Positions 3 through 19,100 of a stretch of DNA of 64,000 bases are shown here, piece after piece. This DNA is from a virus. The DNA lies in the IMG/VR virus record IMGVR_UViG_3300048694_001134, positions 11,656-75,655 of that record. One strand, given 5' to 3'. The notes under the pieces are model-generated. The model had not been told where the DNA came from. It worked only from the letters and a program-made list of their open reading frames with translations, and did no database searches. Numbering within the stretch: the stretch's first letter is position 1; each line of letters starts with the position of its first letter. The translations under genes were made by a program, and so were the position numbers.

Positions 3-1403
3 AACTCTGCCATTGGCGGTCTCACGAGTGGCGGCGGATATTACATTGCGCAGGCGAATGGATCGACGTTTAGATTGTCTACGACGCAGGCTGGCACAAC
101 TACAATTAACCTCACCTCAGGAAACACTGAGACAGGTCATACGTTTAATAGTATATACAACACGTCAAATAATTCTGGTATCAATCTCAACGGCAACAAC
201 TCAGGCGCCGCGCTACAATATGGTGTGCCACAAGCTCTGAGTACAGGCGACACAGCATATGGAGGTTTTGGATTTCCAAAATACCCAAGCTCAAACTTAG
301 ATAGTATTCTATTTGATGTGCTACGTTTTGAATCAAAAACTATTGGCTCTATTGCATCGTTGATTGGTATTGACCCAGGCGCCGAATACAATATGGACCC
401 GTTTGTTGCAATTATTGAGCCACAGGTATCTGCGTACAATCATCATGATATTGTTTTGACAGTAGATTCCGCAACAGCAACGGGCCGCTTTATTGCAAAA
501 GAGCAAATACAGCAAGCACTTGATAGTGTCGGCCGTCAGATAACCGTTGTTTCGTTTAGCGGCGTGACGGCAAACGGTACTGTTACGGACACGCCTTTTA
601 TTGGTGAGCGTGTTTATCAGAAGTATCCAAACAATGCAATTCGTGCTGACGGTATCGTCAGTGAAGGTTTGTTATCGGGCGGCGCAGGTTCGTTTAAATT
701 AAAGACTTTCTCTGGTGTTTTTGTAAATACGTCAAATAACTCAACGAAACTATACTCACAAACCTCCAATGCTACGGCAAACGTTACTGCGGTGAGCAAT
801 GTAACAATAACTTCCAACGCGCGCGGTATTGTACAGGATACATCAAATACAACCGTGCTTCACATTAAAAGAATAACGCTCGAAAACACTTTTGTCGAGG
901 GAAAGACAATTGTTGGCCGCACGTCAGGTGCGACAGCAAACGTTACAGTAGTTGATGAAAATAGAACAACCGAGGTTATCGGTTTGAATGCAAACGTATC
1001 CGCAAACGTTCAGACTGCACTTGGTGTCGTGACGGATTTGAGCGTGCAGGATTCAGGTTTTGGTTACGTTGACCAAGAACTTGTCACGCTGACAAGCGAG
1101 GACAGCATTTATCAAGTGACAGCTGTTGCATTGTTGGAGAAGCAAGGCGTAGGATCTGGTTACTATGCTTCGACTGGTAGTTTTCTCGATGCAGATAAAA
1201 AGTTGCACGACAATGATTACTATCAAGAATACAGTTACGAAGTTGAAACAAAGGTGCCTTTTGATATGTACGTTGACGTGTTGAAAACAATAACACACGT
1301 CGCCGGTACAAAGATATTTGGTGCTGTAGAAAGCATATCACAAGCCACAATGCCGATGAGTGTCATTGTTGGTGATACGATAAATAAGATAGAAATAAGC
1401 TAA
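3..1403 (+). CDS. Baseplate wedge protein, gp7-like (5'-truncated by window edge)
   Basis: Frame is open from position 3. C-terminal FLDADKKLHDNDYYQEYSYEV...HVAGTKIFG resembles the end of gp7-like wedge proteins of aquatic T4-like phages; lies directly upstream of gp8. Confidence 0.65.
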   Translation, partial: NSAIGGLTSGGGYYIAQANGSTFRLSTTQAGTTTINLTSGNTETGHTFNSIYNTSNNSGINLNGNNSGAALQYGVPQALSTGDTAYGGFGFPKYPSSNLDSILFDVLRFESKTIGSIASLIGIDPGAEYNMDPFVAIIEPQVSAYNHHDIVLTVDSATATGRFIAKEQIQQALDSVGRQITVVSFSGVTANGTVTDTPFIGERVYQKYPNNAIRADGIVSEGLLSGGAGSFKLKTFSGVFVNTSNNSTKLYSQTSNATANVTAVSNVTITSNARGIVQDTSNTTVLHIKRITLENTFVEGKTIVGRTSGATANVTVVDENRTTEVIGLNANVSANVQTALGVVTDLSVQDSGFGYVDQELVTLTSEDSIYQVTAVALLEKQGVGSGYYASTGSFLDADKKLHDNDYYQEYSYEVETKVPFDMYVDVLKTITHVAGTKIFGAVESISQATMPMSVIVGDTINKIEIS

Positions 1404-1412
1404 TTTAAAAAT

Positions 1413-3170
1413 ATGACCCAGTTAATTACAAACTATTTCAGACTCCACAACGTAAAACAGTTCCGCGAGTCAATTAACGAAACAGCCAATAGCACGTACT
1501 ATGTGTTTGCGGGTCAGCACGTGCCTTTTACCGGTGACGTTGTTCCGTCTATCACTAACAGCGTTGATAGTACTTTGTACCATGCTTATGATGAAATGAT
1601 TTTTGGTAAGCGTGTAACCGTGAACGATGTTGCTGCTGTAGTGCCACGTCACAACTGGACATCGGGCGAAGTGTATACACCATATAGAAGTGATTTGTCA
1701 TTGGCGGATAAACCGTTTTACGTTTGTGTAAATGCAGCCTCAGAGTATCATATTTTTAAATGTCTTGATAATAACGGGGGAGCAAACTCGACAGCACAGC
1801 CTACCCGTTCTGAGACAAATCCCGACGATGAGTACTACAGTACCCAAGACGGATACGTGTGGAAGTATATGTACTCCGTAGACAGTACAACGTTTGCAAA
1901 GTTTGCAACACAAGATTTCATGCCTGTCGTGCCAAACGCAAACGTCGTAGGTAACGCGGTATCAGGTGCTATAGATGTGGTTACACTTAGCTACCGCGGA
2001 TCTAACTACAATACCTATCTGACGGGAACATTTACATCGCCTGATCTACGTGTTGGTGGTAACCCGCTGTACTATAACATAGCAAATACAGCTTCCGCTG
2101 CTGGTAACTTTTATAATGGAAGCTTTATGTATATTATATCCGGTACGGGCCAAGGTCAAGGTCGCCGTATTGTAAACTATACAGTTTTGGGTAATTCGAA
2201 GACAGTAGAGATTGAGTCTGCGTTCAATATCAATCCTGATACAACGTCGGTATATGAAATAACACCATATGTTATTGTAACAGGTGACGGAACAAACGCT
2301 GTTGCGCGCGCTCTTGTTAATACATCTGCAGCAAATAGCATCTCACAGATAGAGATTATTAGTCGCGGCCGTGGTTACACTTATGCCTCTGCTATTGTTA
2401 CTGGTAACACGGGTGGTGTGCAAAACGCAGCTGTGCTAAGTGTCGTGATGGGTCCAAAAGGCGGTCATGGATCTGATCCGGAATATGAGCTAGGAGCTTC
2501 ATCACTTCTTCTAAGTGTAAAGTTTGAAAATAGTGAAGGTGCAACAATACCTACGTACAATGGATACAGAACAATTGGTATTTTGAAAGACCCGTTATTT
2601 GCAAACGTCGAACTAACCTTTAACAGTCTGACAGGTGCCTTCAATATAGGAGAGACGGTCCAACAGGCAAACAGCTTGGCAACGGGCGTAGTCACTTCGT
2701 TTGATGGTCTGAATACGCTTGGGTTGACAAATGTGTATGGCACATTCATAAGTAGCGCAGTGGTAACAGGCGCTAACTCATCTGCCACGTGTAATGTTGT
2801 ATCTTACACAATAAACGGTCAGTCAAAATCGTTTACAACGTTTGATCAGCGTCGACGTTATGCCTACACAATGCTGTCTGGTAGCCAGTTTACACAAAAT
2901 GAGTATGTGTATCAGACAGATTCACAGCTAGCTAATGCAATTTTCCATGGCAGTACGTCAACAAATCTTTATTTGACGCACCTAAAAGGCACAATAAATA
3001 CAGGGAATAGTATTATCGGCGTGACGAGTGGGGCTTCGGCAAACGTAACAACCTCATACCCACCCGATGTTGTTGTTGGTTCAGGTGAAGTGATTTATTT
3101 GGAGAACACAGACGCAATAACGCGCTCAAATACCCAATCAGAAACAATCAAAATTATTTTGAGTTTTTAA
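1413..3170 (+). CDS. gp8: Baseplate wedge subunit gp8
   Basis: Motifs VVPRHNWTSG, FKCLDNNGGANSTAQP, DGYVWKYMY, PKGGHGSDP, SGEVIYLEN...ETIKIILSF typical of gp8. Confidence 0.85.
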   Translation: MTQLITNYFRLHNVKQFRESINETANSTYYVFAGQHVPFTGDVVPSITNSVDSTLYHAYDEMIFGKRVTVNDVAAVVPRHNWTSGEVYTPYRSDLSLADKPFYVCVNAASEYHIFKCLDNNGGANSTAQPTRSETNPDDEYYSTQDGYVWKYMYSVDSTTFAKFATQDFMPVVPNANVVGNAVSGAIDVVTLSYRGSNYNTYLTGTFTSPDLRVGGNPLYYNIANTASAAGNFYNGSFMYIISGTGQGQGRRIVNYTVLGNSKTVEIESAFNINPDTTSVYEITPYVIVTGDGTNAVARALVNTSAANSISQIEIISRGRGYTYASAIVTGNTGGVQNAAVLSVVMGPKGGHGSDPEYELGASSLLLSVKFENSEGATIPTYNGYRTIGILKDPLFANVELTFNSLTGAFNIGETVQQANSLATGVVTSFDGLNTLGLTNVYGTFISSAVVTGANSSATCNVVSYTINGQSKSFTTFDQRRRYAYTMLSGSQFTQNEYVYQTDSQLANAIFHGSTSTNLYLTHLKGTINTGNSIIGVTSGASANVTTSYPPDVVVGSGEVIYLENTDAITRSNTQSETIKIILSF

Positions 3171-3179
3171 GAGAAAAAG

Positions 3180-6100
3180 ATGCCATTAGAAAAATCTTAT
3201 AACATAAGTCCGTACTTTGACGATTTCAACCAGGCAAAAGACTTTTATAAAGTACTTTTTAAGCCTGGTGTTGCTGTTCAGACACGCGAACTTAACCAGC
3301 TTCAAACGCTGCTTCAAAGCCAGATCGAGCGGTTTGGGGACCACGTTTTTAAGTCTGGCACGATTGTCAGCGGTGTCAACTTTTCTTATATTCCTGTTTA
3401 TAACTATGTGAAGATTCTTGACGTACAGGGTGATGGCCAACCGTCTGTGCCTCAAGCATATGTCGACTATTTTATCAAGAGCGGTCTTAACCTAACAGCG
3501 CGTATTGTTAACTATGAAGATGGTCTTGAGTCGCGCACGCCCGACTTGAAGACGCTGTATCTACAATACATAAACAGCTCTGATCCCGACACTTCAAACG
3601 GTAATATCTCCTACACGCAGTTTGCACCTGGCGAAACGCTAACAATCTTTAGCAAAAATAACGAAATCTTTAAGTACAACGTTCAGAGTGGTGGTCTTGG
3701 GTTTGCAAATGCTGACTCCCTTGTCATCATGAGCGCTATTGGTATTTCTGGCAACTCAGGCGCTTTTAATGCTGGTGATACGATTACACAAGCCGGCGGT
3801 GCACGTGCGCAGATTCTCTACGTTAATACAACAATTGTTTCAAACACAGTCGTCTTGGGCGTTAAGCCGCTGCTTGATGATTTGACAAATACCGCTGTTA
3901 CATCTACAGCGTGGACATTACAGAAAGGCGTCAACGTTGTCGATGCAAACACCTCTGCAACAGCAAACGTCGTGGCAATATACGGATCTGGTGCGCAGGG
4001 TTATTTAACAACGGATGCGTTGGGTATTGTGCAATCGATTGCGGTTGCGGACGGTGGTAGTGATTATACAATCCTTCCTCACGTGACCATCAAAACAGCA
4101 AACGCAGTTGCATCCTACTCAAACCCCTCTTTAAATGTAGTACCACAAAACTATAAAACAACAATTACCGTTGGTAACAACTCAATCAATTCAGTTGGCA
4201 CGGGTTATGCTTTTGGTGTTTCAGAGGGTGTTATCTACCAAAAGGGACACTTCCTCCGCGTTGATCCACAAATCATAGTTGTGGATAAGTTTACAACATC
4301 ACCAAACAACGTATCTGTTGGTTTCAATACTGTTGAAACAGTAATAACGGCAAGCAGTGATGATACGTTATATGACAACGCCTCAAACACGACAAACTTT
4401 GCAGCACCAGGTGCTGATCGTTTGCAGTTGGTTCCTAAACTTATTAAGAAAACAATCGATGAGGCTTCAGCAAACGCAGAGTTCTTCGTTCTTGCTGAAT
4501 GGAAAGAAGGATTCCCTTATAAAGAAAATCGTTCGACGGTGTATTCAGGGCTAGCAGAAGAATTTGCTAGACGTACGCGTGAATCGGCTGGTGATTATGT
4601 CGGTGATATGTTCAGCGTTACAACGCGCGATAAGAATGTAGCAAACAATAACTATATCAACGTTTTAATTGATCCGGGGTTTGCTTACATTAGTGGATAC
4701 CGTGTATCAACATCATACAACAACTATCTCGATATCAAGCGCTCGCAGACGACCTCGAATTCAAGCAACCACAGTGTTACGGTCAACTATGGTAACTTCC
4801 TTTATGTGAAGGAACTAGCAGGCTTCTTTAAGTTCATAGCCGGCGACACGGTTGAGCTTTACAATACGGCAAAGGGATACGTCACTGCCGGTACAATGAC
4901 AACAAGCGGAAGCATTACTCCTCAAGGTACAAAGATTGGTACAGCTCGTATACGAAGCATTATGTACGACAGTGGTGTAATGGGTACGGCTTCTTGTGTG
5001 TATCGTTTGTATCTGTTTGATATCAACATCAGTGCTGGTTACACGTTCCGTAATGTGCGTTCTGTGTTCTATAACGGTACACCGGAAGATGGTATTTGTG
5101 ACGCCGTTCTTGTGCAAGATCCTACGACAAGTACAAGCATTGCGGTACTACAAGACACAGCAAAAGATCAAATGCTGTTCCCTGTGGGTATCACGGGCGT
5201 TACTTCTATTGACAACGTCACCTACACATATAGAACAGCATCTAATACGTCCCTGACATCGTCAGGTAATATGAGTATTGGTCCTCTTGGTGGTACTGCT
5301 GAACATCCATATACACACGGCGCAACGCTCTCTTCCGTAGAAGAGCGTGATCTGTTCCTTATTCCTCAGTCAAACAACCAAGCGGCAGCAAACCAAACAG
5401 GAACATTTACTGTCACGGCAGGTTCAGCGAACGTAACAGGTACAACCGCTGGATGGACAGCTAATTTTGAACCTGGCGATTTTATTCGTCTAGGTAACAC
5501 ATCAACAGCAAACGACACGGCATCTGCACGTGTTGTTGGCCAGGTCAATGCTATTATTAACAGCACGGCTGTTTCGCTTGTCACAGCACCATCCAACTCC
5601 GTCACGGGCAATGCTGTACTTTTCTTCCCCGCACTCTATCCAATCAATCTTGGTCGTACGGGAAGAACAGCAACAAATTCCTCCGATGGAAAAACGCTTA
5701 CCATTAACGTCAACGCGAGCCTGGCCAGTACAGTAAATGCTATTGCTATTCACAACGTACGACAAGCAAACGCAACGCCTGTGTCAAAAACAGTTAAGCG
5801 TAATTTGTATGTAAAGATTGATACAGCAACAAACGTTAACGGTGTTGAGGGCCCATGGTCGCTTGGTATACCTGGCGTGTTCCGTTTAAAAAATGTTTAC
5901 AAAGCATCGAACTCTTCTGTAACTACATCAAGCACGGATGTGACAAAATACTTCTCCGTTGATGTTGGTGAAGAAGAAAATGCATCTCGCAACGCTCAAT
6001 TAGTTCTTAATATTGGCGCACCGCTGACCATTACATCTGGCGACTTTCTGCTTGCCGAGGTTGATGCGTTTACAACGAACGGTAATGAGGGATTCTTTAC

Positions 6101-7970
6101 ATTTAACTCTTACACAGTTAATGCTACAGCAAACCTGACGCAACTATCTGCAAACTCATCTGCCATTAACCTCCTTGAGTTGCCAGAGGTGTGCACAACA
6201 AAGGGCGTGTACTTTGATACACGTGATGTGATTGATTTCCGTCCATTTGCTTCAAACACTGCTGCGCTTGCCAACACCGTTGGGTCAGCAACGGTGAATC
6301 CGGCAAACACGTTTGCTCTAAGTGGAGATAATCAGTTCTTCCCTGTTCCTGACTCTGTTGTCTCTTTCAATGTTCAATTTTATAACGGTAGAGTTGATAG
6401 AGTGGTTGCGCGGAAAGATGGTACGTTTGAGGTATTAGAGGGAGCGCCAGCTCCTACAAATCCCGTTGCCCCGCCGGAACAACGCGATTCAATGACGCTT
6501 TCTATTTTGAAGGTTCCTCCATACCCTTCAATTCCTTCTGCGTTGAATTCGTTTACAACAGAGTTTGCAGCCAAGCGAACATACAGTCCTAACGGTAGCG
6601 TAAACAAGCGCCTTAGCAATTTCCGCGTAACACAAGTACGTGCACGCGATTCGCGTACATCACAACCACGTCGTTACTCAATGAAGGACATTGGCGCTCT
6701 TGATCGTCGCTTACAAGCTGTTGAATATCAAACTTCCTTGAACCAAGTTGAAGCAGCCGTAAAAGAGTTGACAATTCCAAGCGCAATTGCTCCAACGACA
6801 AATAGATTCAAAAACGGTTTCTTTGTTGATACATTTGATAATTATACAAAGGTTGATACAACACACAAAGAATACGCTGCGACAATTGATCAAGGCCGCG
6901 GTTTCTTGAAACCGCCAACAAGACAAGTGAACTTTGAGTCGCAGTTTGATCGCTCTCATGCAAATACAGCGGCTGGTATTGTTAATGGTGACACGTTGAT
7001 GCTACCGTTCACATCAGTTGTTCTTGTTGATCAAAGCATTAAGAGTAGTGTTATCGGAACGACAGGCCAAAAGTTGCAGTTTGTCGGTGATGGTACAATT
7101 ACTCCTTCTGCCTTTTCCATCCTTGCACGTGGTGAGGTCACACTTGTTGCAGACCCTTCGCCAGCCTCATATGATGGTGGTGGGTACTCAGACAACGGCG
7201 GCGGTGGTATGTCAGGGGAAGGTACTGCTGCTGACGGATCAAGTAGTGACGGTGGTGGCGGTGGCGGCGGTGGCGGCTGTTTCACAGCAGACACCTTAGT
7301 AACGTTGTTTGATAGAACACAGAAACGCATTGCTGATATTGTCGTGGGTGATCTTGTTCTTGATGCGTTTAGCAATACACCAAACAAGGTTATTGGTATC
7401 AAGACAACAGAGTACAAAGCTGGTCGTCAGTTGTTCACAACAAATGATAAGTATGCACCATATATTACAGAGGAACATCCGTTCTTCGATAATGAAGGAA
7501 GTCTGTGCGCTATTTCTGACGTGTGTGAATATCAAGCACCATGGCTTGGTCCCGTCAAGATCGTTGAGGTTGCAAAAGTAGTTGACGTGGAAGCGCCTAT
7601 TACGGTTTATAACCTAATGCTCGAAAACGGGTTCACTCACTATGCAAATGGTCAAAAGGTTCACAACATCGTCGGTAACGGCAATATGTTTATCCTGAAT
7701 ATGCGCGGTTGGCTGTCTGAGGAAGACTACAAAGGATACATTACGCTCCTGGAGGATGCGGGTGAACTTGATGCATGGCCAGCCTCGGCTAAGGCACGTA
7801 TGTACAATATTACCGCAGCAATAAATACTTTTGTCTTGCGTAATGATAACATACTTGGAAGAGTTGTTGGTAAGAGCGTTGCCTGCGCGGTCAAACACAG
7901 AGAAAAGTTACTCCCTGTGTTTGGTCTGTGGTTCCGTTCCGGTGTTCGTAAAATGATATTTGGAAAGTGA
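3180..7970 (+). CDS. VrlC/DUF4815-like baseplate/tail structural protein, N-terminal part, with poly-Gly linker, Hint domain and ~100 aa tail
   Basis: N-terminus SPYFDDF...KVLFKPGVAVQTRELNQLQT, internal APGADRL, RRYSMKDIGALDRRL, NRFKNGFFVDTF are VrlC-like; ends GGGGGGGG-CFTADT...VHN plus tail. Confidence 0.8.
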   Translation: MPLEKSYNISPYFDDFNQAKDFYKVLFKPGVAVQTRELNQLQTLLQSQIERFGDHVFKSGTIVSGVNFSYIPVYNYVKILDVQGDGQPSVPQAYVDYFIKSGLNLTARIVNYEDGLESRTPDLKTLYLQYINSSDPDTSNGNISYTQFAPGETLTIFSKNNEIFKYNVQSGGLGFANADSLVIMSAIGISGNSGAFNAGDTITQAGGARAQILYVNTTIVSNTVVLGVKPLLDDLTNTAVTSTAWTLQKGVNVVDANTSATANVVAIYGSGAQGYLTTDALGIVQSIAVADGGSDYTILPHVTIKTANAVASYSNPSLNVVPQNYKTTITVGNNSINSVGTGYAFGVSEGVIYQKGHFLRVDPQIIVVDKFTTSPNNVSVGFNTVETVITASSDDTLYDNASNTTNFAAPGADRLQLVPKLIKKTIDEASANAEFFVLAEWKEGFPYKENRSTVYSGLAEEFARRTRESAGDYVGDMFSVTTRDKNVANNNYINVLIDPGFAYISGYRVSTSYNNYLDIKRSQTTSNSSNHSVTVNYGNFLYVKELAGFFKFIAGDTVELYNTAKGYVTAGTMTTSGSITPQGTKIGTARIRSIMYDSGVMGTASCVYRLYLFDINISAGYTFRNVRSVFYNGTPEDGICDAVLVQDPTTSTSIAVLQDTAKDQMLFPVGITGVTSIDNVTYTYRTASNTSLTSSGNMSIGPLGGTAEHPYTHGATLSSVEERDLFLIPQSNNQAAANQTGTFTVTAGSANVTGTTAGWTANFEPGDFIRLGNTSTANDTASARVVGQVNAIINSTAVSLVTAPSNSVTGNAVLFFPALYPINLGRTGRTATNSSDGKTLTINVNASLASTVNAIAIHNVRQANATPVSKTVKRNLYVKIDTATNVNGVEGPWSLGIPGVFRLKNVYKASNSSVTTSSTDVTKYFSVDVGEEENASRNAQLVLNIGAPLTITSGDFLLAEVDAFTTNGNEGFFTFNSYTVNATANLTQLSANSSAINLLELPEVCTTKGVYFDTRDVIDFRPFASNTAALANTVGSATVNPANTFALSGDNQFFPVPDSVVSFNVQFYNGRVDRVVARKDGTFEVLEGAPAPTNPVAPPEQRDSMTLSILKVPPYPSIPSALNSFTTEFAAKRTYSPNGSVNKRLSNFRVTQVRARDSRTSQPRRYSMKDIGALDRRLQAVEYQTSLNQVEAAVKELTIPSAIAPTTNRFKNGFFVDTFDNYTKVDTTHKEYAATIDQGRGFLKPPTRQVNFESQFDRSHANTAAGIVNGDTLMLPFTSVVLVDQSIKSSVIGTTGQKLQFVGDGTITPSAFSILARGEVTLVADPSPASYDGGGYSDNGGGGMSGEGTAADGSSSDGGGGGGGGGCFTADTLVTLFDRTQKRIADIVVGDLVLDAFSNTPNKVIGIKTTEYKAGRQLFTTNDKYAPYITEEHPFFDNEGSLCAISDVCEYQAPWLGPVKIVEVAKVVDVEAPITVYNLMLENGFTHYANGQKVHNIVGNGNMFILNMRGWLSEEDYKGYITLLEDAGELDAWPASAKARMYNITAAINTFVLRNDNILGRVVGKSVACAVKHREKLLPVFGLWFRSGVRKMIFGK
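7278..7667 (+). other. Hint (Hedgehog/intein-like) autoprocessing domain, 130 aa
   Basis: Block A CFTADTLVTL, IADIVVGDLV, block B ITEEHPF, block F/G VYNLMLENGFTHYANGQKVHN. Residue +1 is Ile; no endonuclease insert. Confidence 0.9.
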
Positions 7971-7971
7971 A

Positions 7972-8463
7972 ATGGTAATCAAATTTAGTTCGAACCATTT
8001 TTATTTACCAGTATCACCACTGATACGGCTATTCACATGGTCTCGCTACTCTCATTGTGAATTCGTGTTTTCCAATGGAGTATCGGTATTTCCAGCAATG
8101 GAAGTGGGGGTCGTCGTATCAACAAGAAAAAAATACCCAATAGAAACTTTTGTTGAGGTTGACATTACACCGGCGGAAGAACGTATACTTTATCACTGGG
8201 CAAAGATGCAACTTGGTGTACCGTATGATTATACGGCGTTAGCACCATTTAACGTTCTGATCCCACGGAAGAAAAAAAGTTGGAAAGATTCAACAGCGTG
8301 GATGTGTTCAGAATTTTGTGCTTTTGGTTTGGAAAAAATTGGTATACATCTTTTCGACGCCACCAAAAAGAAAATAACACCTGGTGAGCTGTTTAAGAAA
8401 ATAATCATGCACCCCAAGGCTCGTGTGATCGAAAACACTTCTTCATCATTAGTATCAGCTTAA
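7972..8463 (+). CDS. Permuted papain-like (YiiX/permuted NlpC-P60) cysteine amidase/acyltransferase
   Basis: His before Cys: YSHCE...QLGVPYD...WMCSEF. ATG one base after the upstream stop. Confidence 0.8.
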   Translation: MVIKFSSNHFYLPVSPLIRLFTWSRYSHCEFVFSNGVSVFPAMEVGVVVSTRKKYPIETFVEVDITPAEERILYHWAKMQLGVPYDYTALAPFNVLIPRKKKSWKDSTAWMCSEFCAFGLEKIGIHLFDATKKKITPGELFKKIIMHPKARVIENTSSSLVSA

Positions 8464-8474
8464 AGAGAAAACAA

Positions 8475-8897
8475 ATGCCACAAAGAACCAACCCTCGGGT
8501 ACAATTTATATCACGTGAACAGGTTTTTAGATTTGCTGTAAATGCTTTGCAGCCACTAACTATCCATAATTTTTATTTTGAACGCCAATTAGTTGATGCG
8601 TCAAAGCTAAAACCTGTTGGTGGCAAAATTGGTGATATTCTTAAAACGGATGAAAACGGATACGTTGAGTTTGATTACTATTATGATTCGGGTCTTGCTG
8701 GTGGAGAGACTCCTCTAGAACAAGCACAAGCAGCAGCAAACGCTTTGGCAGGCGTTAAGGAAGTCATTCTTACGACGCTTGGGACAGCAACGTTACCAGA
8801 CGATTACGAAACCTTAGCGTTATCATATTTTAGAAGTCATATTCGTGTCTCGGTATACATACCACCTGTAAGCGAATTTGAAGAAGTCGCTGGTTAA
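8475..8897 (+). CDS. VrlC-like protein, middle fragment
   Basis: FISREQVFRFAVNALQPLTIHNFYF...LKTDENG resembles the internal VrlC segment as I recall it. Confidence 0.5.
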   Translation: MPQRTNPRVQFISREQVFRFAVNALQPLTIHNFYFERQLVDASKLKPVGGKIGDILKTDENGYVEFDYYYDSGLAGGETPLEQAQAAANALAGVKEVILTTLGTATLPDDYETLALSYFRSHIRVSVYIPPVSEFEEVAG

Positions 8898-8912
8898 ATA
8901 ATAGGAAAACAA

Positions 8913-10943
8913 ATGGCAGGATTCGACTTAGCTCAAACATTTTTTCTTGATAAAGATGCTGTCCAGGGTGCTGATGTAGCTAGCATTACTGGTGTTGATC
9001 TTTACATATATGGTAAACCAGTCGCAGGAAAGACCAAGTCTGGTATAGACAAACCTGGTATTTCTATCTTTCTTTGTGGATGCAACGAAGATGGCTCTCC
9101 TGATCTAACACTGTTCCATCACACATTCTCAGCACGAGTTGATTACGATAACATTATTGCAGATACGGATGGCGGGGATGCAACGTCATTCATATTCAAT
9201 CAGCCATTGCCAGCACCGACTGATCGCAAATACGCAATTATGATAAAGTTTGACGGTAGTGATCCAGATTTTAAAATTTGGTATAACAAAGCTGGTGAAA
9301 ACATTCTTGGTACCACGCAGAAGACTTCTGTATCATCTGGTAAAGTAGACGGTTCATTGTTCACCATGACTAATGGCAAAAGTCTTACACCGGTCGTAGA
9401 TGCCGATCTATCATTCCGCGTCAAAGTGGCAAAGCACACATCATTGTCAATGACTTTCCTAATAAAGAATCGTCCTTACGAGCTGATGGACGTGACGGAT
9501 AAGGTTGGTATTTTCAAGGGTGGTGAAGACATTTACAAAGTATCAGCTAATGCAGCAGGTACTGTAAGCATCAACGCTGCTTCATTGTCTCTTATTGGTA
9601 ACGGAACAAGCTTCTCCACTCTCAACGTCGGAGATGCGTTTGTTATTACGGACGGTACAACGGATAACACGGAGGTGCGTGTTGTCACTTCAAGAGCAAA
9701 TAACACACTACTAACAATCAACGAACAGCCATCGTTTACAAATGCTGTCGGTAAATATTACAAAACCGCCACAGCAAAAATGTTTTACAGTGATGGTGTC
9801 TCGGATAACATGGTTGTAAATGATTCAACATCAAACAGTACTGTGTACTTTGCAAGCAACGATGTAATCCGTGGTGTTGATTCTCTAGCAGAGGCAAAAA
9901 TAACTTCTATTATTGATTATCAGCTAAACAGCGTTGTCCCTAACTTTACAATAAGAACACCTGGAGGCACAACAGCTGTCTCAACGTTAAATTTTGCAAA
10001 CAATGGTGGTGTAATTGATGCAACGCGACAGGTTGACGCAACACTAGGTCAGCGTATGTTTGTTAATCAGTATGACGCTGTTATGCTTTCAGAAACAAAT
10101 AGAGTGCTTGCGGGTAAATCAAATCCGTTTGCGGGAACACTGACATTTACTACAAACAACCCCTTTGTTTCTCCTTATGTGAGAGAAGAAAACCTTGACT
10201 TGTTCGTCGAGCGTTATAGTATAAACAACATATCAACTAACGAACATAAGGGATCGGGTCTATCGCAGGCTCGTTATATAACCAAGCCCATCGACTTGGC
10301 TGATCAAGTATCAGAAGATATGAAGTTGTACATCCGTGGTTATAGACCAGCAGGAACAACAATAGAAGCATATGCGCGCTTCCACAATAGCGAAGATCCG
10401 GAAAGTATTGATTTGAAAGACTGGACACAGCTTTCCTTTGCCGGCACAGACGTTCCGTACAGTAGCCCTTCAAACATTTACGACTTTAAGGAGTTGCCGT
10501 TTGAGATGCCTCTTTATGGCTCAGGCACAGCAGCAACTGGTACATTCACCGTATCTTCTGCATGTACCGTTATTACGGGAACGAGCGGTACAGTCAATAC
10601 CGACATAGCCGTCGGATCGACGGTGCGTGTATACTCGTCAACATTTACAAACAACTATTTCGTTGATACGGTTGTTGCTTCAAACTCGACCACAATTACG
10701 GTTGCAACTGGCCCAGGATCAAACGCAAGCGTGTTGGGTAGTGGATTTAAGATTGATGTTGTATCTCGTCCGCAAAGTGCCTTCCTCGATGTACAATCGG
10801 GTAATGTATTGACATACTTTAACAAAGCTGGAGCTATCTTTAGAGGCTATGACAAATTCACTGTCAAATTAGTTCTTCTATCAGAAGATGGTATTAGAAT
10901 ACCGTACGTCGATGATGTGCGTGCAATTGCGGTATCAGCATGA
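8913..10943 (+). CDS. VrlC-like protein, C-terminal part
   Basis: DLAQTFF...ITGVDLY at start, ARYITKPIDL and FTVKLVLLS...PYVDDVRAIAVSA at end match the VrlC C-terminal region. Confidence 0.7.
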   Translation: MAGFDLAQTFFLDKDAVQGADVASITGVDLYIYGKPVAGKTKSGIDKPGISIFLCGCNEDGSPDLTLFHHTFSARVDYDNIIADTDGGDATSFIFNQPLPAPTDRKYAIMIKFDGSDPDFKIWYNKAGENILGTTQKTSVSSGKVDGSLFTMTNGKSLTPVVDADLSFRVKVAKHTSLSMTFLIKNRPYELMDVTDKVGIFKGGEDIYKVSANAAGTVSINAASLSLIGNGTSFSTLNVGDAFVITDGTTDNTEVRVVTSRANNTLLTINEQPSFTNAVGKYYKTATAKMFYSDGVSDNMVVNDSTSNSTVYFASNDVIRGVDSLAEAKITSIIDYQLNSVVPNFTIRTPGGTTAVSTLNFANNGGVIDATRQVDATLGQRMFVNQYDAVMLSETNRVLAGKSNPFAGTLTFTTNNPFVSPYVREENLDLFVERYSINNISTNEHKGSGLSQARYITKPIDLADQVSEDMKLYIRGYRPAGTTIEAYARFHNSEDPESIDLKDWTQLSFAGTDVPYSSPSNIYDFKELPFEMPLYGSGTAATGTFTVSSACTVITGTSGTVNTDIAVGSTVRVYSSTFTNNYFVDTVVASNSTTITVATGPGSNASVLGSGFKIDVVSRPQSAFLDVQSGNVLTYFNKAGAIFRGYDKFTVKLVLLSEDGIRIPYVDDVRAIAVSA

Positions 10944-11164: not shown

Positions 11165-13031
11165 AGCAATAGCAAACGTTGTTATCGCATCAGATTCCTT
11201 TGCGACGTGGATTGGTATAACCAATCAGATGGCTGATACGTTTACTAATCAAGCATTGACAGCAAACAGCGCCGCAGCGGGCGCTACCGTCACTGGCAAC
11301 TCACAGTTGGTTGGTATTTTTGCAGCTAATACAATTGGTATAGGAACAGCTCTCCGTGGTGGTAACGTTGCAACGTCAGCGAACCTTACCATTACATCTA
11401 ACGCAAGCTTCACTGGCGCTAATCTACACAGCTCCGCAAACGTGTTTTTGAACGCGGCTAATGTTGATGTCAACACAACAATAACCACGCTGCGCGGTGG
11501 TAGTGTTACTGTTACGTCTAATGCATATACAAACGCAGCTAACGTTTTTGTTAATGCGGCAGCGATGACTATTCAAGGCGGACAAGCGACTGTCTCCTCA
11601 AACGTTGATATTAATAACGCAAACACGACTATCCGTGGCGGTCAAGCGTCAATTACGTCAAACACCTATATTCAGGCTGCTAACGTTTATGTGAACGCAG
11701 CTTCTACTATTGCCCTAGGTAACACAACCTTAAAAGGCAACACGTCTGTTAACAACATAGTTCTGACAGGTAACGCAACGTCGACAAACGTTGACTTGAA
11801 TGTGTCCCAATTGACTATTAATGCTGTGTCTATTGCCACCGGTAACACAACGTTGAAAGGCAACACGTCATCAAGTTCAGTCGTATTGACAGGCAACGCA
11901 ACGTCAACAAATCTTGATGTCGCTGTCTCTCAGTTAACCGTGGGTGCAGTTTCTGTATTCACAGGTAATACAACAATCAAAGCAAATAGTACCGTAACAG
12001 TTGCAACAATTGTTGGCAATTCAACGGCAACAAACGTTGCTGTTACCGCAACAGGTTTCAACATCAACGCAGTCACAATTGCAACGGGTAACACGACAAT
12101 TAAAGCAAACAGTTCTCTCTCAAGCGTAGTGTTAACCGCTAATGCAACGGTGAGTAACTTGAATATTAGTGTTGATACACTATCCGTGACGGGTATTGTC
12201 TCTCTAGCAAATACACTCGGCGTTGCTGGTGCCGGCACTGTTAACGGAGCCTTCACTGTTAACAATACAGCAGCTGTTGGCAATACATCAATTACCGGTT
12301 TTGCGAATGTTAGCACAACACTTAACGTCGTTGGTAACGCAACGGTCAATGGTGCGCTGACAGTCAATAATACAGCATCAGTTGGTAATACGACAATTAC
12401 AGGATTTGCAAACGTCAGCTCGACATTGAACGTTACCGCAAACGCAACAGTTAACGGTGCGTTTTTAGTCAACAACGTAGCTGCTGCTGGTAATACTTCT
12501 ATTACGGGGTTCATCAACGTTTCTTCAACAGCAAATATTGGTGGTGTGCTATCAGCGCGCGCTAACGTTGTTGCTAATGGCCAGTTGATTGTATCTAATG
12601 CAGTGTCGGTTGGTAACACAACAATTACAGGTTTCCTCAATGTTTCAAGTACAACAGCGTTAGGCGGTGATGTAACAATTCAGACGGAAATTGTACAAAC
12701 CGTTGTTACTAATACAAACATTGGTAACGCCAATGCTGCCGGTTCATTTACACCTGTTGAGATCTTTAGCTTCCCTATTGGTACGTATCATGGTGCAAAG
12801 ATTCTTTCACGTACAACAACAAGAACTGGTGCCAATACACAAGTTCAAGAGCTTGTAATTGCGCAGAATGAGACAGACGTTACTCTTACATCCTATGCCG
12901 TTGTTGCTGCTCCTGAAGGTGCTAACGTTGGTGTGTATTCAGCAACAATAAATAGCTCAGCTGTTTCAGTTAAATTCCAACAAACAAGCGCTAACACTAG
13001 TGCCAAGTTGTTTGTGCAGTACATAAAATAA
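11157..13031 (+). CDS. Tail-fibre-like protein with N/T/A/V-rich beta repeats
   Basis: SDSFATW N-terminus; repeats GNTTLKGN and VNNTAAVGNTSITGFANVS; C-terminal globular domain. Confidence 0.7.
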   Translation: MAKAIANVVIASDSFATWIGITNQMADTFTNQALTANSAAAGATVTGNSQLVGIFAANTIGIGTALRGGNVATSANLTITSNASFTGANLHSSANVFLNAANVDVNTTITTLRGGSVTVTSNAYTNAANVFVNAAAMTIQGGQATVSSNVDINNANTTIRGGQASITSNTYIQAANVYVNAASTIALGNTTLKGNTSVNNIVLTGNATSTNVDLNVSQLTINAVSIATGNTTLKGNTSSSSVVLTGNATSTNLDVAVSQLTVGAVSVFTGNTTIKANSTVTVATIVGNSTATNVAVTATGFNINAVTIATGNTTIKANSSLSSVVLTANATVSNLNISVDTLSVTGIVSLANTLGVAGAGTVNGAFTVNNTAAVGNTSITGFANVSTTLNVVGNATVNGALTVNNTASVGNTTITGFANVSSTLNVTANATVNGAFLVNNVAAAGNTSITGFINVSSTANIGGVLSARANVVANGQLIVSNAVSVGNTTITGFLNVSSTTALGGDVTIQTEIVQTVVTNTNIGNANAAGSFTPVEIFSFPIGTYHGAKILSRTTTRTGANTQVQELVIAQNETDVTLTSYAVVAAPEGANVGVYSATINSSAVSVKFQQTSANTSAKLFVQYIK

Positions 13032-16157: not shown

Positions 16158-19100
16158 ATGGCCATAACATCACTTAAGTACAATACAGCGTTAAAGGGAT
16201 TACAGGCAATGTCCAATACGGACGTTGCTAGTTACCTTTCGCCTGTTATTGGAGCATACTTTGCTTCAAACACAAGTGTTGGTTCTCTTGCTGTTGGTTC
16301 AATGGCTAATGGTACATCGATCGGTACATGGGTCGATACTTACCGGACAGACTCGCTCGGTACGCACCCCGTCAATGCTGGTGCTATTACCACAAACAGC
16401 ACAACGCTCTATCAAGATCTTTCCAACTCCTCTTTAAATGAAACGACAGTACGACCTCTTGGGTGGAGTACGAGTAATAACTATTTCAAAGAGTTTACTG
16501 ATACGGATATAAAAGACAATCTTTGTAATGCAGTTTTACAGGGCATGCTTCTTTCCGGCGCAGGCGCATACGTGCTTCAGCCAACGGCTCCTGCTACTGG
16601 TACATGGGCGTCTCGAGGAACGTTAACAAATACGTTAACTACAGGAACAACAAACACAACAACGCTTTGGCAGCGCACAGATAGTACCGCTTCAACGGTT
16701 ACAAGACCTATCAAGTTTGCGGCTGGCGTGCGCGAGATGACTGATGATGATATCAGAACATTAACGCATAAAGTTCGTAACTACATTGTCACAAACGGTA
16801 TTGGACAATATCAGTTATCAGCAACAACGCCTGTAACACCAGGAACATGGGTTCAAGCAGGTAGCGGTTTTGATGATACGCGTTATCAAACTCAAGACCA
16901 AGCATATGCTGGCACGTACCAACAAGCATTCACCGGCGCCTACACAGCAGCGTACACGGGAGCCTATGGTGGGAACTTTACCGGCGTTTACAATCAAACT
17001 TTCTCCGGAACTTACCAACAGGCATTTAGCGCAGCATACACTGGCCTGTACACAGGTGTTTATAGCCAAGCGTTCACAGGAAGCTACACTAACACGTTCA
17101 CGGGCGCTTTTACTGGTGCTTATGTAGGTACGTTCTCCGGAGCATACACAGGTGCTTATTCACGTGTGTTCACTGGCTCATATACAGGCGCATACACTGG
17201 TATATACAGCCAAACGTTTACAGGGTCATACACAGGCAGTTACAATCAAACATTTACTGGCGCTTACACTGGTATCTACAACCAGACGTTTACTGGTACC
17301 TATGCTGGTAATTATCAGCAGACATTTACTGGCGCATACACAGGTAATTATAACCAAACGTTCACGGGCACGTACAGTGGCGGGTACATTGGATATTTTA
17401 CTGGCTCTTACGCTGGCACATATTCAAGCGTGTTCAGTGGTTCATATACCGGTGCTTACACGGGCGTATACAATCAGACGTTCACCGGAGCGTATGCTGG
17501 CAGTTACATAGGATACTTTACTGGTTCTTACGCGGGTACATATTCGCGCGTGTTTAGTGGTTCATATACTGGTACCTATACCGGTGTCTACAATCAAACG
17601 TTCACAGGTGCGTACGCTGGTGGATACGTTGGCTACTTTACTGGCTCTTACGCCGGCACATACTCACGTGTGTTTAGCGGTTCATATACTGGATTGTATT
17701 CTGGCGGATATACTGGTTACTTCACGGGCAACTACACGGGGTATTATACTGGTTACTTTACAGGTAATTACACGGGTGCTTATTCACGTGTGTTTACTGG
17801 AGCGTACGCTGGTGCATATACGGGATATTATACTGGGTACTTCACCGGGTACTATGCAGGATCATATACCCGCGTGTGGACGGGATCGTATGCTGGTACG
17901 TACGGTCAAACATGGACGGGTGTGTATGCTGGCGCTTATGCGCGATCGTGGACGGGCACATATACGGGCTACTTCACGGGCAATTACACTGGTTACTACG
18001 CAGGAGCGTACACGGGGTACTACACTGGTTATTTTACTGGATACTATACAGGGTATTATGCACGTGTAAGCTACACAGGATATTATACTCGAGTATTCAG
18101 TCGCACGTATGGCGGCAACGTTGCGGGTGGTGGCTGGTTTGCAGGTAGTTTTGTTGGTACTTATAACGTCAACGCAGTCTCTTATGTTGGGTATTATACT
18201 CGAGTATTCAGTCGCACGTATGGCGGCAACGTTGCGGGTGGTGGCTGGTTTGCAGGTAGTTTTGTTGGTGCCTATAATGCAACCGGGGCAGTCTACATGG
18301 GCTACTATGTTGGCTCGTTCAGTCGCACGTATGGCGGCAACACTGCGGGCTGGTATTCATCTAGCTACCTTGGTGGTTATCAAAACGTGGCTAAAGCGTT
18401 TGCAGGTAGTTACGCAAGTTCATTTGCCGGTGCGTATACAGGCGCGTACGCAGGAACGTATGCGGGCGCCTATGCACAAAGCTTTGCAGGAACGTATACT
18501 TCATACTTTACAGGTAACTATACTGGTTCGTATTCTCAATACTGGACGGGAACTTATGCTGGAAATTACTCAGCGACTTGGACAGGAACATACGCCGGCG
18601 TATATGCAAATACATTTGTAGGGTATTACACTGGCGTGTACGCAGGTAATTACACGGGAACGTTCTCAGGTATATACGCTGGTGCTTATGCGCAAGCGTT
18701 CGCTGGTTTGTATGCTGGCACATATGCACAGGTGTTCACAGGAACATATGCTGGCGCATATGTTGGTAACTACACTGGTAGCTTCACTGGCGCGTACGCT
18801 GGTGCGTACGCTCAAACGTTTACAGGTATCTATAGCGGTGGTTATGTGGGTGCATTCACAGGCCAATACAGCGGCGCCTATATTGGTAACTATACAGGTA
18901 GCTTCACCGGCGCATATGCAGGAGCTTATGCACAATCATTCACTGGGTCATACAGCGGCGGTTATGTTGGCTCGTTTACCGGACAGTACAGCGGCGCCTA
19001 TATTGGCAACTATACCGGTAGCTTTACTGGCGCGTATGCCGGCGCGTATGCGCAGACATTCACCGGACTGTATAGTGGTGGCTACGTTGGTACGTTTACT

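Follow-up and report, generated by a model that had tools for sequence, protein, structure and literature searches.

The DNA analysed here (the window) is a stretch of 64,000 nucleotides (nt) from the IMG/VR virus record IMGVR_UViG_3300048694_001134, positions 11,656 to 75,655, and the phage is an uncultured T4-like myovirus. The source is a 75.7-kb IMG/VR viral contig with an estimated completeness of 43%. The open reading frame (ORF) at 3180–7970 of the window encodes a baseplate protein of 1596 amino acids (aa) of the VrlC/DUF4815 type (Pfam DUF4815, E 8e-49; phrog_358, E 7e-179). Its C-terminal end consists of a Gly-rich linker, a Hint domain and a basic helical tail, and a gene for a papain-like cysteine enzyme follows directly. 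Our sequence comparisons indicate that Hint, tail and enzyme gene are one conserved, mobile two-gene cassette. The first-pass annotation, made by a model from the sequence alone, had described a linker, a Hint with Cys1 and a TxxH motif, an Ile at position +1 and a basic tail of 100 aa, all of which are present in frame at that place. The features of the cassette, in window coordinates, are:

7152..7277, plus strand: acidic Gly/Ser-rich flexible linker of 42 aa (aa 1325–1366 of the translation), with nine Gly directly before Cys1
7278..7667, plus strand: Hint domain of 130 aa, starting at Cys1367-Phe, with block B TEEH and a terminal Val-His-Asn; AlphaFold2 predicted local distance difference test (pLDDT) >90 over the domain
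7668..7970 (coding 7668–7967), plus strand: basic tail of 100 aa, helical in the AlphaFold2 model, from Ile+1 to a Lys followed by TGA
7972..8463, plus strand: YiiX/YaeF-type circularly permuted NlpC/P60 enzyme of 163 aa (phrog_1128, E 4e-22), with His28 preceding Cys112

The Hint domain of the window scored below the Pfam cut-offs, with 19.7 bits for Hint (cut-off 29.7, E 6e-4), 16.9 for Vint (cut-off 27, E 6e-3) and 12.9 for Hom_end_hint (cut-off 32.1). Some other members of the family that Hint and tail form together (family 1) do reach the gathering score for Hint models. Despite the weak Pfam scores, the identity of the domain is certain, because it has full-length homologues and an AlphaFold2 model that matches solved Hint domains. 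The homologues span all 230 aa of Hint and tail (E 1e-113 to 5e-52; 22 clusters below 1e-30), and the model of both regions has a pLDDT of 88 and a predicted template modelling score (pTM) of 0.82. The best Foldseek match of the Hint is the second bacterial intein-like (BIL) domain of Tetrahymena BUBL, BIL2 (6y75, E 8e-10). In VIA, the best match is also BUBL BIL2 (6tmm, Z 16.1, root-mean-square deviation (rmsd) 2.6 over 134 aa), followed by the C. thermocellum BIL 2lwy (Z 14.8), by Vint and mini-inteins (Z of about 12–13) and by Hedgehog 1at0 (Z 12.0). The 27 best VIA chains with Z 8 or more (Z 16.1 to 8.8) are all Hint domains, namely inteins, BIL, Vint and Hedgehog. The kinship with BIL-type Hints that the first-pass annotation had suggested is borne out, the closest folds being those of BIL domains, BUBL BIL2 included.

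The catalytic set of family 1 is intact. Cys1 is present in 24 of the 24 complete sequences, T-E-x-H is invariant or nearly so, and the terminal Asn is found in 25 of 25. The near-invariant motifs are Cys1-Phe, T-E-x-H, LCA(I/M)S, APW, ANG and Val-x-Asn, and nearly all members have a Hint of 130 aa. The terminal His-Asn pair noted earlier in the window holds up for the Asn only, since the penultimate His is kept in just 2 of the 25 sequences. At +1, 19 of the 25 sequences have Ile (as the window does) and 6 have Met; a nucleophile never occurs there. The Hint should therefore be unable to splice canonically, as had been expected. With no +1 nucleophile, no empty allele among the best 150 matches and no endonuclease, a canonical intein was rejected. 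Family 1 does show the pattern of A-type BILs: Cys1, a C-terminal Asn, no +1 nucleophile, and variable, non-housekeeping carriers.

The nine-Gly run of the window's linker is encoded by mixed GGT and GGC codons. In family 1, Gly occupies positions −2 to −4 in about 20 of 23 sequences, with at least three Gly ahead of residue −1, and the charge of the linker ranges from 0 to −8 (negative in 23/25). Residue −1 itself, directly before Cys1, is G (9 sequences), E (8), S (4), A or P, so an activated Gly-Gly C-terminus, as previously inferred from the window, is not the rule.

Several minor features of the Hint and the linker were also seen. The LCA(I/M)S motif is family-specific. About 10 of the 25 family-1 linkers (e.g., P0034, P0035, P0036, P0043 and P0045) have exactly two Cys, separated by a few residues, in the acidic Gly/Ser stretch that precedes the poly-Gly run. 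Two family-1 proteins, P0031 (676 aa) and P0033 (364 aa), have a tandem Hint-Hint-tail arrangement with the second Hint directly behind the first; the first ends in VHN-K-G-(E) and the second starts with Cys-Phe one to three residues on. In P0050 (387 aa), a C5 DNA-methylase motif (GGFPC) runs into the Cys-Phe of the Hint, and the second half and the tail are of family 1; this could be a methylase intein recombined with the cassette, or a chimeric assembly. Opposite the Gly-rich linker, on the minus strand, lies an ORF of 128 aa (7031–7417) with a poly-Pro run; it is the linker's complement and almost certainly not a gene.

The tail of the window has a net charge of +5 and no transmembrane segment. 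AlphaFold2 placed five or more helices in it (model residues 151–241, pLDDT 66–96), in one model with the Hint. Across family 1 the charge of the tail is +1 to +11 (at least +5 in 24/25), the last helix is strongly basic, and no membrane-spanning segment occurs. All 20 matches in the representative library that reach the C-terminal part of the tail end at the C-terminus of their protein; they start at Cys1 of the Hint, and one 5′-truncated fragment starts ten residues in. No tail without a Hint was found among the best 150 matches (1.84 billion representatives), and a word-based search with the tail alone returned only the window's own protein and its close relative P0002. No known family for the tail was found in Pfam or NCBIfam. 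Its best ESM Atlas score, 0.84, lies under the useful range, and a wide VIA search gave only generic helical bundles with Z 4.8 or less. In sequence and fold searches, no homology of the tail to a sterol- or adduct-recognition region was detectable.

In active Hint domains, the peptide bond before Cys1 is converted to a thioester. When residue +1 is not a nucleophile, the thioester leads to N-terminal cleavage or is attacked by some other group (cholesterol in Hedgehog, the freed alpha-amine in A-type BILs), and cyclisation of a terminal Asn can break the chain on the C-terminal side. One conceivable outcome at our locus is thus splicing of the A-type BIL kind: cyclisation of the Asn would free the tail, the alpha-amine of its Ile would attack the thioester, and the mature protein would be VrlC-polyGly-tail, with the Hint as an intein-like passenger. 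The conserved Cys1, TxxH and terminal Asn and the never nucleophilic +1 residue fit this, as does the match to the C. thermocellum BIL (2lwy, Z 14.8), which is said, in reports ascribed to Dassa in 2004 and Aranko in 2013, to ligate without a nucleophilic side chain. However, there was no Hint-less "empty" allele, meaning a tail without a Hint, among the above-mentioned 150 best matches, a sister family of Hint-tail modules (family 2, see below) has Ser or Thr in place of the Asn, and splicing gives no role to the strictly linked enzyme. We regard splicing as quite improbable.

The similarity to A-type BILs and BUBL BIL2 (2lwy; 6tmm/6y75) includes a mini-Hint of about 130–150 aa with Cys1, TxxH, a C-terminal Asn and no +1 nucleophile, as well as variable, non-housekeeping host proteins, and these domains are the best structural matches. 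The cassette differs from them in its dedicated 100-aa helical region and its separate YiiX-type gene, and in that it always forms the C-terminal end of a phage virion protein. The thioester of BIL and BUBL proteins is resolved by cleavage or by joining to an amine (PMC8616854).

The enzyme gene most likely starts at ATG 7972, 1 nt past the TGA stop codon of the VrlC ORF and with GGAAAG upstream, while TTG 7960 is probably not its start; the homologues start with MKI(K/R)F. The gene is predicted to be translationally coupled to the VrlC-Hint-tail ORF. The first-pass annotation had described the product as a papain-like enzyme with His before Cys, and this proved right. H28 (in SHCE), C112 (in WMCSEF), S113 and E114 are invariant in 41 enzyme sequences, the H28 and C112 motifs are kept in distant phage homologues, and Y85 and Y87 of a PYDYT motif are nearly invariant across the alignment. 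The AlphaFold2 model of the enzyme (pLDDT 85) matched 2if6 in Foldseek with E 1e-5 and probability 1.0. VIA comparison gave Z 15.1 with E. coli YiiX (2if6; rmsd 2.4 over 135 aa) and Z 13.9 with B. cereus BcPPNE (3kw0; rmsd 2.4 over 138 aa). Weaker matches were TseH (Z 9.4), MARTX RID (7.0), PLAAT4 (6.3), DeSI 2wp7 (5.1) and CLN5 (4.1). The profile of the enzyme family also matches 3kw0 (E 0.0025) and 2if6. Curated models were not reached: Pfam gave no match up to E 10, PF05708 included, and NCBIfam PRK11479 gave 16.4 bits against a cut-off of 279. Because the fold matches to YiiX and BcPPNE far exceed those to other permuted papain-like proteins, we assign the enzyme, on its model, to the YaeF/YiiX-type permuted NlpC/P60 enzymes.

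The DeSI/PPPDE and LRAT types that had been considered for this enzyme are not supported (Z 5.1 and 6.3, vs. 15.1 for YiiX). The same applies to the suggestion that it acts in counter-defence, as a deconjugase that strips tail proteins of ubiquitin-like tags added by the host. The enzyme does share its permuted papain fold with the DeSI/PPPDE isopeptidases (2wp7, Z 5.1), but it is far nearer to YiiX and BcPPNE, no match to defence or anti-defence models was found with PADLOC, the cassette also occurs on fibre-like proteins, and the strict coupling to one Hint-tail family would be left unexplained. This role is therefore hardly credible.

With the YaeF/YiiX family (MEROPS C92; YiiX 2if6, 3kw0 and S. 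aureus LnsA) the enzyme shares the core fold and the order His before Cys; the SHCE and WxCSE motifs are common to its phage homologues. It differs in a basic loop, PRxKKxWKD, found only in the Hint-linked subfamily, and in having no PF05708 match. A further difference is its tie to a Hint-tail gene, which chromosomal YiiX and YaeF do not have. Distant homologues (about 30% identity, phrog_1128) stand alone in many phages (L001, L063–L089), and the phrog_1128 annotation "enoyl-CoA hydratase-like" looks like a misnomer. Permuted NlpC/P60 enzymes form acyl-thioester intermediates. The members that have been studied bind or transfer fatty acyl groups (PMC3142127, PMC7387801): YiiX has a fatty acid bound in a hydrophobic S1 pocket and a catalytic Tyr (PMC3142127), and LnsA forms part of a lipoprotein N-acyl transferase (PMC7387801). 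The YaeF/YiiX family is almost without assigned function, and a constant partner protein offers a concrete hypothesis on the substrate.

Our locus set contained 34 complete loci from the window, IMG/VR contigs and metagenome contigs, which form 20 clusters at 90% identity and 9 at 70%; two further loci run off the contig edge and are outside the 34. In the representative library at 50% identity, family 1 accounts for about 22 clusters, and the module invariably forms the very C-terminus of its protein. The enzyme gene lies 0–23 nt past the tail or overlaps it by ATGA at each of the 34 complete loci. Conversely, enzyme homologues of at least 48% identity with upstream DNA (nine loci and the window) all have a Hint-tail upstream, one further such homologue (L060) being cut at a contig end. 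For 29 enzyme homologues of at most 33% identity, no Hint was found within 3.5 kb upstream. An independent distribution of Hint and enzyme, named beforehand as a result that would speak against a joint function, was thus not observed: co-occurrence is complete in both directions for the family-1 Hint-tail and this enzyme subfamily.

The carriers of the cassette vary. VrlC carries it after its N-terminal part (window, L002, L092–94) or after its middle part (L095 = P0003), and in L095 the enzyme is kept at this different junction. Other family-1 carriers are Gly_rich_2 fibre-like proteins of 695–1051 aa and an S8 peptidase/Gly-rich fusion. Homology between the loci runs from the linker to the stop codon of the enzyme, and therefore linker, Hint, tail and enzyme move as one unit. 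The window's own 75.7-kb contig contains only one Hint-tail copy, and there was no match to either Hint-tail family in one genome each of 185,579 prokaryote species. In the literature searched, no paper reports VrlC, hub or fibre proteins that carry a Hint, or the combination of such a domain with a YiiX-type enzyme.

We consider it somewhat probable that the cassette is a maturation device, in which the virion protein is detached at the polyGly/Cys junction and the enzyme acts on a product or intermediate of the reaction. From the observed architecture, folds, conserved residues, linkage and mobility among carriers, we infer the following steps of cleavage, thioester resolution and enzyme action. 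An N-to-S acyl shift at Cys1 would turn the last bond of the virion protein, (G/E/S)/Cys, into a thioester, whose resolution would release the mature VrlC fragment from Hint and tail. The invariant terminal Asn may also sever the Hint from the tail via succinimide formation. The coupled enzyme, with its intact His/Cys pair, would then work on a product or intermediate of the Hint reaction, its activity being most likely acyl transfer or acyl hydrolysis to judge from characterised relatives. Candidate targets are the thioester, the freed N-terminus of the tail and the polybasic end of the tail. The 100-aa tail would be an obligatory region, packed onto the Hint as in the model.

Such a maturation device is supported by the intact catalytic set of the Hint and by the position of the module at the very C-terminus behind a Gly-rich linker on unrelated carriers (DUF4815/VrlC, Gly_rich_2, S8 peptidase). 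It is also supported by a tail that is found only with the Hint and shares one confident model with it, by the linkage of the enzyme in 34/34 loci, and by relatives of the enzyme that handle acyl groups, including MARTX RID (Z 7.0) and PLAAT4 (Z 6.3). What would be new is Hint autoprocessing with two obligatory partners, a private tail and an enzyme, in the setting of a phage virion; Hint autoprocessing itself is known. The known roles of Hint domains are in inteins, Hedgehog processing, BILs and pretoxin modules, to which phage virion maturation would be added.

Several observations weigh against a maturation device of this kind. Family 2 has neither the terminal Asn nor a nearby YiiX-type gene; because it does without the enzyme, the enzyme is not needed for Hint modules generally. 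Only family 1 has the terminal Asn and the enzyme, and their correlation comes from a single clade and is not independent evidence. The adjacency of Hint-tail and enzyme could come partly from joint transfer. The wider enzyme family occurs in unrelated contexts, such as after DnaB-like helicase genes in T4-like contigs, after tail-fibre genes, and before the sheath gene of Ralstonia phage RSA1. Neither Hint-tail family was found in 50,697 GenBank phage records. In addition, the closest IMG/VR relative, L002 (69% identity in Hint and tail), has a 1-nt deletion in its Hint (L002:8225–8235, gcaatg to gcatg) that shifts the frame, either a sequencing error or the mark of a decaying copy. Unlike in L002, the Hint is intact in the NCBI-derived P0002 and in loci L092 and L093.

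The family-2 module has a polyGly/CF(T/L) junction, a block B of the form T-x-N-H and a C-terminal G-T-(T/H)-(S/T) instead of Asn. Its tail is helical and similar in length to that of family 1, and homology between the two tails is not significant (hhalign probability 3.8%). The carriers are VrlC (L011, L017, L020), gp5-like central hubs (L012, L013, L015, L016, L019) and other proteins. In both families, an oligomeric tail protein ends in a Hint module with Cys1 that is preceded by poly-Gly. The VrlC layout of L017 is that of the window, with a Hint-tail on the N-terminal fragment followed by the 140-aa and 676-aa fragments, minus the enzyme. The family-2 hubs (e.g., L013:1316–3034) are gp5-like hub/spike proteins of marine-type T4-like phages with polyGly/Cys and a Hint; their tail is hydrophobic-basic and helical, and their genes lie directly upstream of gp25- and gp6-like baseplate genes.

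The carriers of both families also bear on another explanation, that Hint and tail are a self-removing assembly module (an intramolecular chaperone) that aids folding or docking and is then cut off, the enzyme being a co-transferred accessory or moron with an envelope-directed function. Every carrier is a fibrous or oligomeric virion protein (VrlC, gp5-like hub or Gly-rich fibre), and the module invariably lies at its C-terminus, after a flexible linker. Members of the wider enzyme family also stand alone in many phages, and the RSA1 copy (see below) lies between fibre genes and the sheath gene. Against this, coupled linkage in 34 of 34 loci, on different carriers and across nine deep clusters, is hard to explain without a shared function, and the model shows the tail as a compact bundle packed against the Hint and not as an oligomerising coiled coil, although this last point is weak, the model being of a monomer. 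We find such a chaperone very doubtful. Peptidase S74-type chaperone domains are self-cleaving through a Ser-Lys dyad, C-terminal on tailspikes and fibres, and exchanged between carriers. They differ from the cassette in having another fold, a Ser-Lys dyad instead of a Cys thioester, and no partner enzyme. The RSA1 homologue of the enzyme, ORF26 (L001, record positions 18310–18774), is situated between tail-fibre genes and the sheath gene, as seen in P2-like Ralstonia phages; we take this site between fibre and sheath genes to be the P2 Z/fun moron site.

The locus does not fit a pretoxin-HINT (PF07591) toxin module, as the window has no PF07591 match, the tail matched no toxin family, and the downstream gene encodes a catalytic-type enzyme. 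The two arrangements are alike in having a Hint before a short C-terminal domain and a small gene directly downstream, and several weaker homologues of the window's Hint do carry PF07591. They differ in that the downstream gene here has an intact catalytic pair and is not of the immunity type, while the window scores below PF07591.

The baseplate protein that carries the cassette has VrlC of Caulobacter phage Cr30 and of rhizobial, Stenotrophomonas, pelagi- and cyanophages as its closest named relatives. VrlC has been described as a component of double-layered baseplates, in place of T4 gp7 (PMC4621102, PMC7029224). Baseplate wedge genes lie upstream of the VrlC ORF, at 75–3170, and terminase and sheath genes are found further along. 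The three VrlC fragments of the window are:

3180..7151, plus strand: N-terminal VrlC fragment, the carrier of the cassette (DUF4815, phrog_358; 33% identity to Cr30 gp250 over aa 337–1289)
8475..8897, plus strand: middle VrlC fragment of 140 aa, continuing the baseplate protein past the cassette
8913..10943, plus strand: C-terminal VrlC fragment of 676 aa (phrog_358 profile positions 1703–2054 of 2056)

The middle fragment shares motifs with the N-terminus of Cr30 gp251 and with an internal part of P0003, and is 85% identical to its counterpart in L002 and 46% to that in L017. The C-terminal fragment is 28% identical to Cr30 gp251 aa 135–786. The VrlC gene is broken differently from phage to phage. 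It is a single gene of about 2056 aa in many cyanophages, two ORFs (N / middle+C) without Hint or enzyme in Cr30 (L051), two ORFs (N+middle / C) in L095/P0003, and three ORFs (N, the 140-aa middle and the 676-aa C part) in the window (3180–10943). The Hint cassette sits at the N/middle break in the window and at the middle/C break in L095. The VrlC of Cr30 stops at the same point as the window's N-terminal fragment, without Hint or tail. The cassette marks cut points of a very large gene, which bears on the evolution of modular phage adsorption machines.

A split intein in a fractured gene was rejected for this locus, since the Hint is complete (130 aa, all blocks) within ORF 3180–7970 and the ORFs at 8475 and 8913 start with VrlC sequence. 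In fractured genes with split inteins (Dassa 2009, PMC2677866), a long gene is interrupted; Hint sequence lies at the interruption, and a free-standing gene separates the two parts. Here, in contrast, a complete Hint lies upstream and none downstream, and the inserted gene encodes a cysteine enzyme and not a homing endonuclease.

The breaks in VrlC also bear on a transfer reaction of the Hog or BUBL kind. In Hedgehog, an N-terminal cargo is released by thioester chemistry. The family-1 module resembles Hedgehog/Hog in its G/Cys-Phe junction (residue −1 varying here), in a Hint followed by a short helical C-terminal region and in the match to 1at0 (Z 12.0). It differs in the invariant terminal Asn (Hedgehog has none), in the partner cysteine enzyme and in a bacterial host without cholesterol. 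The terminal Asn in 25/25 sequences speaks against membership in the Hedgehog/Hog group, which has no C-terminal cleavage residue.

A transfer of this kind would have the thioester attacked by a lipid head group or by an amino group, either on an adjacent baseplate protein or on the VrlC fragment that comes next, with the tail as recognition region and the enzyme as acyl-transferase or relay thiol, giving a lipidated or cross-linked product without ATP. The G/CF junction, Hint and accessory region of about 100 aa mirror the known Hedgehog layout, and the 1at0 match is in keeping with this; the cassette also occurs at two different fission points of VrlC. In the top structural match, BUBL BIL2, a lysine attacks the thioester and Lys isopeptide bonds are formed without ATP (PMC8616854), and the enzyme has acyltransferases with lipid pockets as relatives (PMC3142127, PMC7387801). 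On the other hand, the tail has no conserved Lys and no homology to sterol or adduct-recognition regions, residue −1 varies and can be Glu, the downstream VrlC fragments start with P, P, P, A or T after Met and so have no conserved N-terminal residue, and the Gly-rich fibre carriers have no downstream "other half". Moreover, Cr30 has the same VrlC split without a Hint, and family 2 manages without an enzyme. Taken together, we hold transfer to be unlikely.

Carried a step further, the cassette would be an ATP-independent protein-conjugation device, which we judge rather unlikely. The Hint would load the C-terminus of the virion protein as a thioester on a long poly-Gly arm, and the enzyme, docked on the tail, would hand the acyl group over to an acceptor, either a lipid or an amino group on an adjacent virion protein, possibly the next fragment of the split VrlC. 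The outcome would be a lipidated or covalently stitched baseplate. In a variant, the enzyme would fatty-acylate the tail peptide released by Asn cleavage. If the thioester is indeed passed on, bacterial viruses would possess a protein lipidation or ligation system that needs no ATP, and the cassette would be a compact portable tool of about 230 aa plus 160 aa.

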